DNA of 64,000 bases from an uncultured Azospirillaceae bacterium (GTDB lineage Bacteria; Pseudomonadota; Alphaproteobacteria; Rickettsiales; UBA3002): positions 23,988 to 87,987 of the forward strand of contig CAZMBI010000008.1 in the NCBI GenBank assembly GCA_964564675.1, read 5' to 3'. Positions 31,409-32,620 of the stretch are shown piece after piece (positions within the stretch are counted from its first letter, which is position 1; every line of letters begins with the position of its first letter). The position numbers and the translations under genes were made by a program. Below the pieces are notes generated by a model. It was not told where the DNA came from. It made no database searches and saw only the letters and a program-made list of their open reading frames with translations.

Positions 31409-31522
31409 TTCATGCTTCCTTACAAGAGGTTAAATCCATTACGCGTCAGCGCTTTAATCAGGCGCTCCTTTTTTAATCATGCTTGATTCCCATGCAGCGC
31501 ATGAGTATCCTTAGAACAGGAG

Positions 31523-31831
31523 ATGAAACAAGAAAACATGTTTGATTCAAAAAAAGTTGACCAAATAATAAGCAATTTTATCAAGCGCGATTTTAGCGAT
31601 GTGGACATTGCGGATATTATCATATCCCCTGATGAAGATTTTGAAGGTAACGAGATCCTCAAAATCACGGTAATTTACAGAGGAAGCTTCAAAAAAGATG
31701 CCATAAAAAAGACAGTCAGCGCTGTGCGCAAAGTGAGGCCGCAGCTGGAACAGGTCGGAGAGCACGCATTTCCTCTTTTTTCTTTCATATCCCAGTCCGA
31801 TTACGGAGCTGGCCATCGTGCAGCCCACTGA
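31523..31831 (+). CDS. Hypothetical 102-aa protein, upstream partner of the HEPN-like gene (candidate antitoxin/regulator)
   Basis: AT-rich ORF overlapping the next gene by 14 nt. A sigma70-like TTGATT-N17-TATCCT lies at 31483-31511. Alternative start at 31538. No GS..SD.D minimal-nucleotidyltransferase motif recognisable, only SDVDI. Confidence 0.55.
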   Translation: MKQENMFDSKKVDQIISNFIKRDFSDVDIADIIISPDEDFEGNEILKITVIYRGSFKKDAIKKTVSAVRKVRPQLEQVGEHAFPLFSFISQSDYGAGHRAAH

Positions 31832-32297
31832 TCTTTTAAGTACAGCTAAAGAGTTGCTCCATTTCGGCCACGGTAAAAGACCGCGAGGCGCTAACTTGCG
31901 TCGGGCCGTTAGCAGTGTGTATTACGCATTATTTCATACACTTGCCAGAAACGCGGCGGACTTATTGATCGGCGGCACAGGATCGGAACGCAGCGACCAT
32001 GCATGGTTGCAGGTTTACCGCGCGCTTGAACACGGGAATATATGGAATGGCTGCAATCACAAAGACATGATGAAAAAGTTTCCAGATGACATTCAGGATT
32101 TTGCAAACGTTTTTCTGGAATTAAAGGAAAAAAGAGAGGACGCGGACTATAACCCTAATGCGAGGTTTTATAAATCTGACGTAACTAAACTTATCAATAA
32201 GGCGGAAATTATTATACAGGGATTCAACGATTGTACATATAAAGATAAGCGCGCGTTTGTAACATACGTGCTTTTTAAGAAAAACCGAAACAAGTAA
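31818..32297 (+). CDS. HEPN-like domain protein (candidate toxin/RNase)
   Basis: The helix-1 pattern LRRAVSSVYYALFHTLARNAADLL and the later LKEKREDADYNPNARF resemble the HEPN fold signature (A.S.AYYA.FH.A.ALL ... R..ADY). AT-rich, 159 aa. Confidence 0.6.
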   Translation: MQPTDLLSTAKELLHFGHGKRPRGANLRRAVSSVYYALFHTLARNAADLLIGGTGSERSDHAWLQVYRALEHGNIWNGCNHKDMMKKFPDDIQDFANVFLELKEKREDADYNPNARFYKSDVTKLINKAEIIIQGFNDCTYKDKRAFVTYVLFKKNRNK

Positions 32298-32375
32298 TCA
32301 CAATTTGCCGGAACCCGAGCCAGAGCGATCTGTTGGCCGCAATACGTTGCGCCACGCGTAGCCGAAGGCGAAGCG

Positions 32376-32451
32376 TGGTGCCGGCTGACGGACTCGAACC
32401 GCCGACCTGATGATTACAAATCAACTGCTCTACCAACTGAGCTAAGCCGGC
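32376..32451 (-). tRNA. tRNA-Thr (anticodon TGT), CCA encoded
   Basis: The reverse complement reads GCCGGCTTAGCTCAGTTGGTAGAGCAGTTGATTTGTAATCATCAGGTCGGCGGTTCGAGTCCGTCAGCCGGCACCA. One U-U mismatch in the anticodon stem. Confidence 0.93.
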
Positions 32452-32620
32452 ACACTGCTTAAGGATGTAGCCGATTCGCCGCATCGGGGCAAGTATCTAG
32501 CGTGAGAGCAGTGCGGCTATGAATTGATATTAATTATCACTTGCAGTTTTCTGGCTAACCGATTAAGCAGGGCCTATAAAAGCAACTAATAATCATTATC
32601 ATTATGTCGGGGCTTGATCG

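Follow-up and report, generated by a model that had tools for sequence, protein, structure and literature searches.

The stretch of DNA analyzed here (hereafter the window) comprises 64,000 nucleotides (nts) of contig CAZMBI010000008.1 from an uncultured Azospirillaceae bacterium, and the subject of this report is a cassette of two small genes, A and B, located in it between dcd and a tRNA-Thr gene. Gene A (31523..31831) encodes a protein of 102 amino acids (aa) on the plus strand, with ATG 31538 as an alternative start in the sequence; gene B (31818..32297), also on the plus strand, begins with GTG and encodes a 159-aa protein of the HEPN-T family (AF0298/UPF0332-type), a putative RNase toxin. 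The limits of these two open reading frames (ORFs) and their 14-nt overlap are exactly those claimed in a first-pass annotation of the sequence. The overlap (31818..31831) extends from the start codon of B, GTG at 31818, to the stop codon of A, TGA at 31829-31831, and forms a translational-coupling junction. The Shine-Dalgarno sequence of B, GGAG (31805..31808, plus strand, read from the sequence), is located 9 nts before GTG 31818 and within the 3' end of gene A.

The cassette lies in an AT-rich islet (31409..32375) that stretches from the start codon of dcd (PF22769; 30842..31408, minus strand), its left neighbor, to the 3' end of tRNA-Thr(TGT) (32376..32451, minus strand). This tRNA gene delimits the islet on the right, turns its 3' end towards it and is not part of the cassette. 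The drop in GC content that the first-pass annotation had estimated by eye was confirmed by measurement: the GC content is 0.442 in the islet and 0.425 in the two genes, versus 0.584 in the 10 kb on each side, and windows of 300 nts give values of 0.38-0.47 across the islet versus 0.57-0.69 in the flanks.

Relatives of this cassette were found in many other genomes. At least 569 loci with a relative of B were confirmed out of at least 600 candidate stretches in species-representative genomes. A total of 86 loci were analyzed, among which 84 could be assessed for the presence of gene A from their upstream DNA; the two others are contigs ending right at B. All 84 assessable loci contain a homolog of A that ends at the start of B. 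The 14-nt overlap (NTG...TGA) is retained in 63 of them, and the remaining 21 have either an overlap of 1-23 nts (17 loci) or a gap of 6-9 nts (4 loci). When four divergent A proteins were used as the starting point, a homolog of B was found downstream in every case (4/4). The conserved pairing elsewhere that the first-pass annotation had proposed to look for is thus present in both directions. Moreover, the pairwise identities of A and B proteins are correlated (Mantel r = 0.66, a value reached by none of 999 permutations), with A being the faster-evolving partner (mean identity of 28%, versus 51% for B). These results show that the pairing of A and B is strict, two-way and co-inherited, and that the cassette is not specific to this genome but a large, widespread and unannotated family.

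With regard to gene B, the protein encoded in the window has no match in NCBIfam or PADLOC, and its match to the Pfam HEPN family (PF05168) is below threshold (E = 0.026, 15.1 bits versus a cut-off of 22). Its family gives a clearer picture. About 320 homologs of B were found at about 50% identity, several of which are named 'UPF0332 family' or 'HEPN domain-containing' in their sources. A family profile built from 50 sequences matches PDB entry 2hsb (UPF0332 protein AF0298) with E = 3.6e-5 and two structures described as 'HEPN domain-containing protein' (9xbd and 9xbc) with E = 0.003-0.02 (0.003 for 9xbd), and 10 of the 50 members match PF05168 (best E = 2.6e-6). The AlphaFold2 (AF2) model of B is entirely helical (pLDDT 92.8, pTM 0.88), and the top ten structures retrieved with it from PDB by Foldseek are all HEPN proteins, namely 2hsb in the first place (probability 1.00, TMt 0.59), followed by 4nqf, 3mfn, 8xdj/8xeh and 1wwp, with 1wty and 6m6w ranking lower. 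Pfam, profile and fold searches therefore agree with the first-pass annotation, which had recognized B as HEPN-like, and show that B belongs, as a divergent member, to the AF0298/UPF0332 type of HEPN proteins (HEPN-T, PF05168).

The two motifs that had led to this recognition, a helix-1 signature (RRAVSSVYYALFH, residues 28-40) and an R-x-DADY element (R106-E-D-A-D-Y111), are both present and sit on invariant or near-invariant columns of the family. The invariant residues of the B family are R29, S32, Y35, Y36, H40, W63, Y67, R68, H72, R106 and Y111, and D110 is near-invariant. About 30 additional aa (residues ~52-90, 31971..32087) are inserted between the core helices; this insertion holds the invariant W63, Y67, R68 and H72 and hence an R-x3-H dyad, plus the near-invariant C79; R68-x3-H72 might represent a relocated catalytic dyad. 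The canonical Rx4-6H motif is absent from B, as had also been noticed in the first pass, and R106-x3-D110-Y111 is found instead. In HEPN-T proteins typified by AF0298, the histidine of Rx4-6H is missing, with D in its place in many cases, and it has been proposed that an alternative active site is completed by a highly conserved H on the N-terminal side of the motif (PMC3710099). In the profile alignment, H40 of B (within 'YYALFH') is aligned with this conserved N-terminal histidine. Because the loss of Rx4-6H is a documented state of the AF0298 subfamily, it does not exclude B from that subfamily.

For gene A, no match was detected in Pfam, NCBIfam, PADLOC or PHROGs; no member of its family is assigned to a Pfam family, and the family profile has no relative in PDB by sequence. 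The first-pass annotation, which could name no family for the upstream protein, was correct in this respect. A word-based homolog search with A was empty, failing to return even A itself, because the gene caller applied to the Logan contig of this locus had chosen an antisense ORF of 89 aa instead. This shadow ORF corresponds to 31547..31828 (minus strand) of the window and to 2730..2999 of L001, and gene A of this genome is absent from the protein database. We considered whether A might be an orphan or spurious ORF and rejected this idea, as its homologs were recovered from the loci of B: ORFs of about 95-105 aa upstream of B homologs are homologous to A (BLASTP E = 3e-21 and 2e-13). The plus-strand ORF is the real gene A, matching the hidden Markov model (HMM) of the family with E = 3.8e-33. 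An exhaustive profile search yielded 1,425 representative clusters at E <= 1e-3, including 552 at E <= 1e-10, and nearly all members stand alone, with a length of about 95-100 aa. The whole domain is duplicated in tandem in P0148 (215 aa), P0165 (228 aa) and P0171 (235 aa), each half of which matches the HMM with E values of 1e-23 to 1e-32, and P0206 (247 aa) is extended at its N-terminus by about 140 unrelated aa. Where gene A has been called, as in the NCBI entries and in the two plasmids examined (see below), it is labeled 'hypothetical protein', and a family model would improve its annotation.

The AF2 model of A (pLDDT 88, pTM 0.77) has the topology alpha1-beta1-beta2-alpha2-beta3(-alpha3), with an acidic loop of the DxDGD type in the beta1-beta2 hairpin (D37-x-D39-x-E41-G42-N43-E44). 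Foldseek searches of PDB and BFVD with this model returned only generic two-layer alpha/beta sandwiches (E >= 4e-3, TM <= 0.6), such as OsmC/Ohr, the C-terminal domains of cation-efflux proteins, the KH-like domains of RbfA/uS3 and the C-terminal domains of ANL proteins. In an alignment of 252 unique sequences of the A family, the hairpin loop is conserved at D39 (81%), D/E41 (77%), G42 (85%) and D/E/N43 (91%). Other conserved positions include R69, R72, P84 (98%) and E/D93 (96%), among which only P84 was called near-invariant.

Gene A occupies the position usually taken by a minimal nucleotidyltransferase (MNT) gene, and Y111, the invariant tyrosine just after the R motif of B, belongs to the class of positions AMPylated by MntA in HepT (PMC13000451; PMC7641770). 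Both features would suit a type VII-like system, in which A would be a cryptic and highly divergent enzyme, such as a degenerate nucleotidyltransferase, and would attach a covalent modification to Y111 of B. We nevertheless consider such a system most improbable. The 252 sequences of A contain neither G[SG] nor a strand-borne catalytic DxD, which agrees with the G[SG]...D.D motif having been reported as missing in the first pass, and their only near-invariant residue is a proline. The alpha-beta-beta-alpha-beta order of A places a beta hairpin where the Pol-beta fold requires a helix, and no nucleotidyltransferase is present among the top 50 Foldseek matches listed for A from either PDB or BFVD. 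In addition, the A family has no Pfam match to NTP_transf_2, and a lone match to DUF294 in one of 36 members is at chance level (E = 0.059). A superficial likeness of IIISPDEDFEGNEILKITVIY to the pattern lfGSxaRG...SDiDllV had suggested that A is a degenerate MNT; this candidate was rejected on the same grounds, i.e., the missing helix between the two strands, the listed fold matches and the lack of a catalytic pattern in all 252 sequences. The data show that gene A is genuine, belongs to a large unannotated family and does not encode an MNT. Since A has no match to an MNT or a known antitoxin by either sequence or fold, the pair represents a new HEPN-partner combination, which was one of the two options ('divergent or new') left by the first-pass annotation.

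The hosts of the cassette are distributed over several phyla. They include Alphaproteobacteria (Rhizobiales, Rhodobacterales, Rhodospirillales, Caulobacter and sphingomonads) as well as Dehalococcoidia/Chloroflexota, Latescibacterota, Binatia, Vicinamibacterales, Spirochaetia and Gammaproteobacteria, and several genomes contain two copies. At most 6 of 80 loci share any one flanking gene family, and the cassette is usually AT-richer than its flanks (median GC difference of -0.075; -0.16 in the window). Homologs of B were also detected on 31 plasmids, 27 of which are from Rhizobium and 21 conjugative; the protein is called 'hypothetical protein' in all 13 annotated records among the 15 plasmid records listed. 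Two conjugative Rhizobium plasmids, L088 (NZ_CP071629.1) and L089 (NZ_CP053444.1), were examined. On both, repC/repB or parB is found no more than a few kb from the pair, and the gene upstream of B is a member of the A family (hhalign probability of 97.8%). On one of the two, the cassette also adjoins a gene of the ProQ/FinO family. The B protein of L088 is annotated with a shortened N-terminus (coding sequence 4136-4453, with the match beginning at 4001).

In the Dehalococcoidia, chromosomes of metagenome-assembled genomes (L090/L091, L092 and L093) carry the cassette in divergent orientation to the gene of the CCA-adding enzyme (cca; PolyA_pol+HD) and next to peptide deformylase, and in L090/L091 tandem PaREP1 genes, which belong to another HEPN-T family, are located beyond cca. 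An HEPN toxin of Aphanizomenon reportedly trims the 3' ends of tRNAs, and the link of the cassette to the gene of a tRNA-3'-end repair enzyme is intriguing given that report. The B homolog of L093 (2838..3305) contains an in-frame stop at the position of the near-invariant C79 beside an intact A, and from its sequence it looks like a toxin-inactivated copy.

Carriage by phages is rare. A tblastn search of B against 50,697 phage genomes was empty at E <= 1e-3, and the cassette was found on 2 of 2.9 million viral contigs of IMG/VR. B has a weak match to phrog_5176, a phage family of unknown function (E = 2e-7, residues 1-136); given the empty tblastn search, this family is a more distant HEPN-like relative. 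These data bear on the suggestion of the first-pass annotation that the cassette might be a defence module. In an abortive-infection or anti-phage role, B would be an RNase effector restrained by A until a phage cue displaces, degrades or titrates A; the mechanism would be that of a toxin-antitoxin (TA) pair and only the role would differ. HEPN RNases are common defence effectors (PMC3710099), one Dehalococcoidia locus adjoins an AAA_15/AAA_21 ATPase gene and another lies by the tandem PaREP1 HEPN genes, and the weak match to phrog_5176 would also fit. However, the models of PADLOC-DB v2 match neither protein at E values up to 10, no defence gene recurs as a neighbor in 80 loci, and the cassette is almost absent from phages, while the replication and partition genes next to it on the two Rhizobium plasmids suggest maintenance. 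We therefore regard a defence role as unlikely, and the suggestion of a defence module found no support in the PADLOC and phage searches.

Instead, we propose that the cassette is probably a type II-like TA system, in which B would act as an RNase toxin through R106/H40 and would be neutralized by stoichiometric binding of A. Its organization is the generic one of TA loci, i.e., two small co-directional and overlapping genes with strict co-occurrence in a mobile or variable context. The charges of the two proteins are also consistent with a TA pair, A being acidic (median isoelectric point, pI, of 4.95 in the family; 6.3 for the window copy) and B basic (family median of 9.6; 9.4 for the window copy), and A has no enzyme-like invariant residues. 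In addition, the ecology of the cassette is TA-like, as judged by its variable context, the genomes with two copies, its presence on plasmids, its AT-richness and the nonsense-mutated B of L093 with an intact A; the two genes travel together between unrelated genomes and plasmids.

We infer toxicity, RNase activity and binding along the following lines. B would be a dimeric, metal-independent RNase with a site formed by R106 (of the degenerate R-x3-D-Y) and H40 of helix 1. Through the 14-nt overlap, A would be made first and in step with B, and it would neutralize B by direct binding, whereby the acidic D-x-D-G-D hairpin loop of A may fill the basic cleft in which B would bind RNA. Once A is lost or depleted, B would be released, leading to RNA cleavage and growth arrest, and the freed toxin would thereby stabilize plasmids or islands, or abort infections.

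Several observations weigh against a TA system of this kind. A has no DNA-binding domain as found in type II antitoxins (HTH, RHH or AbrB) according to Pfam, NCBIfam and fold searches, and it is a well-folded domain, unlike the partly disordered type II antitoxins. HEPN structures match the fold of B only modestly (TM 0.4-0.6, E >= 0.05), which is partly due to the ~30-aa insertion between the core helices. Toxicity of the A/B family is documented neither by experiments nor by database entries, and the AF0298-type HEPN-T proteins are themselves RNases by prediction only (PMC3710099). Finally, several Dehalococcoidia genomes have the cassette at the same place, between cca and def, which may indicate a domesticated, non-selfish role or vertical retention.

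This conserved position would also be expected if A and B formed a non-toxic two-subunit complex, in which B would be an inert HEPN scaffold or RNA-binding protein (compare MtlR and the nucleotidyltransferase-fused HEPN proteins) and the cassette a mobile accessory operon with a regulatory or housekeeping function. The missing histidine of Rx4-6H points in the same direction, and inactive regulatory HEPN domains are documented (PMC3710099). On the other hand, R29, H40, R68, H72, R106, D110 and Y111 are all kept over roughly 50% sequence divergence, and this set includes the pair proposed to form the alternative active site of the subfamily (PMC3710099). The variable context, the multiple copies, the plasmids and a nonsense-mutated B accompanied by an intact A also fit a selfish TA system better, so that a non-toxic complex seems quite unlikely to us.

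If the cassette is indeed a TA system, it would add an antitoxin fold and a means of silencing HEPN RNases that are both new, provide a clean system for asking whether AF0298-type HEPN proteins without the canonical histidine are RNases, and explain the recurrent pair of 'hypothetical proteins' beside repC/parB in the two Rhizobium plasmids examined. More tentatively, and with some doubt on our part, A could represent a new class of antitoxins: a compact, acidic protein, neither enzymatic nor DNA-binding, whose D-x-D-G-D loop (as a phosphate-backbone mimic or by metal binding) would occupy the cleft of an HEPN-T toxin. The cassette would then constitute a large TA family of multiple phyla and rhizobial plasmids that is independent of MNT and AMPylation.

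With respect to the origin of the islet, the first-pass annotation had proposed that the pair was acquired horizontally at a tRNA hotspot. Horizontal acquisition is supported by the base composition and by the patchy distribution of the family over multiple phyla. Integration directed by the tRNA gene found no support, as no att-like direct repeat of the tRNA-Thr 3' end was detected in or around the islet and no integrase was present among the neighbors scanned. We also inspected 80 related metagenomic dcd loci, the aa identity of which is 70-85%. None of them contains the cassette, and the nucleotide similarity to the window ends at 31395-31408, the start of dcd. No locus among them exceeds about 85% aa identity. 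They carry another tRNA-Thr (GGT), which is oriented the opposite way, and in L096, L097, L100, L124 and L134 this gene is located 300-800 nts upstream of dcd. Thus, the dcd/tRNA-Thr neighborhood recurs, but its isoacceptor and strand differ from those of the window. None of the 80 loci qualifies as a true empty site, the relatives being too distant and carrying another tRNA-Thr in another orientation. Because there is no att repeat, no integrase and no empty-site comparator, the term 'tRNA hotspot' describes the location of the cassette and is not supported as a mechanism.

The region upstream of gene A contains several candidate regulatory features. The sigma-70-like promoter reported in the first pass (TTGATT-N17-TATCCT) is present at 31483..31511 (plus strand), but with only 8 of 12 positions in agreement with the consensus it falls below the threshold of our promoter scan (9/12), in which it was not listed, and is a weak candidate at most. 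Directly upstream of it is a terminator-like hairpin followed by a T-run (AGCGCTTTAATCAGGCGCT CCTTTTTTAA; 31448..31476, plus strand), a consensus match only, which may shield the cassette from read-through; 2 terminator-like sites were found, versus 1.5 expected. Short repeats were also noticed near the candidate -35 box (31453..31489 and 31534..31548), namely TTTAATCAGGC / TTTAATCATGC and AATCATGCTTGATTC / AAACATGTTTGATTC, the latter of which includes the short palindrome AATCA-N4-TGATT. These repeats may represent an operator, or they may have arisen by chance in AT-rich DNA. Beyond the tRNA gene, a second AT-richer stretch (32460..33300, GC content of about 0.47) contains two overlapping ORFs (32621..32875 and 32781..33281) without Pfam matches; it is followed by a gene for a GGDEF-EAL protein (33453..34850, minus strand) and by a further GC dip (0.43) at about 34800-35100.

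Among known systems, the HEPN/MNT pairs are regarded as the most abundant TA pairing, with AMPylation by the MNT as the established mode of neutralization. Examples of these type VII systems (HepT/MntA) include Shewanella SO_3165/3166, Aphanizomenon HEPN-MNT and Legionella HEPN-MNT (PDB 8xdj/8xeh, 6m6w). The likeness of the cassette to their layout, to which the first-pass annotation had drawn attention, holds for the gene order: both have a small upstream partner overlapping a downstream HEPN gene and a mobile character. Both also share the four-helix core of HEPN, an arginine motif and, after it, a tyrosine, both conserved, and the combination of an acidic partner with a basic HEPN protein. 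The likeness does not extend to the partner, as neither the sequence nor the motifs nor the fold of A are those of an MNT. Moreover, B is of the HEPN-T/AF0298 type (R-x3-D-Y plus the helix-1 H) instead of the DUF86 type (RxxxxHxY), it has the extra insertion of about 30 aa with the invariant W63, Y67, R68 and H72, and its neutralization is predicted to occur by binding rather than by AMPylation.

The AF0298/UPF0332/COG2250 group of HEPN-T proteins (PF05168; PDB 2hsb, 1wwp, 1o3u) provides both the best sequence-profile match and the best fold match of B. Common features are the helix-1 pattern R..S.aYYA.FH, the C-terminal R-x-x-x-D-Y, and the replaced histidine of Rx4-6H along with a compensating N-terminal H. 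B differs from this group in its length (about 155 versus about 125 aa, owing to the insertion), in that most of its family members fall below the Pfam HEPN threshold, and in its partner. COG2250 proteins are documented with an MNT partner of COG1708 (PMC2701414), whereas B is always paired with the A family.

No description of the A/B pair was found in the searchable literature, the coverage of which is incomplete, and the pair is not mentioned in PMC3710099, PMC2701414, PMC10440598 or PMC13000451. HEPN pairs without an MNT have been predicted before, for example the dyads of MAE_18760-family HEPN proteins with ParA/Soj ATPases (PMC3710099), which set a precedent for unrelated upstream partners as predicted antitoxins of HEPN toxins. 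These dyads involve another HEPN family, and A, unlike their upstream partner, is not an ATPase and has no nucleotide-binding motif. A parallel may also be drawn with folded RNase inhibitors, such as barstar for barnase, and RnlB and Dmd for the HEPN RNases RnlA and LsoA. These are likewise small, acidic and folded blockers without a DNA-binding domain, a role that is predicted here for A; no relation of A to them was detected by sequence or fold, and the parallel would be one of mechanistic analogy only. Since non-MNT partners are known for other HEPN families, A is a new partner for HEPN and not a new category. As the cassette shows, a sizeable branch of the classical HEPN-T proteins has exchanged its MNT for an unrelated and unannotated partner.

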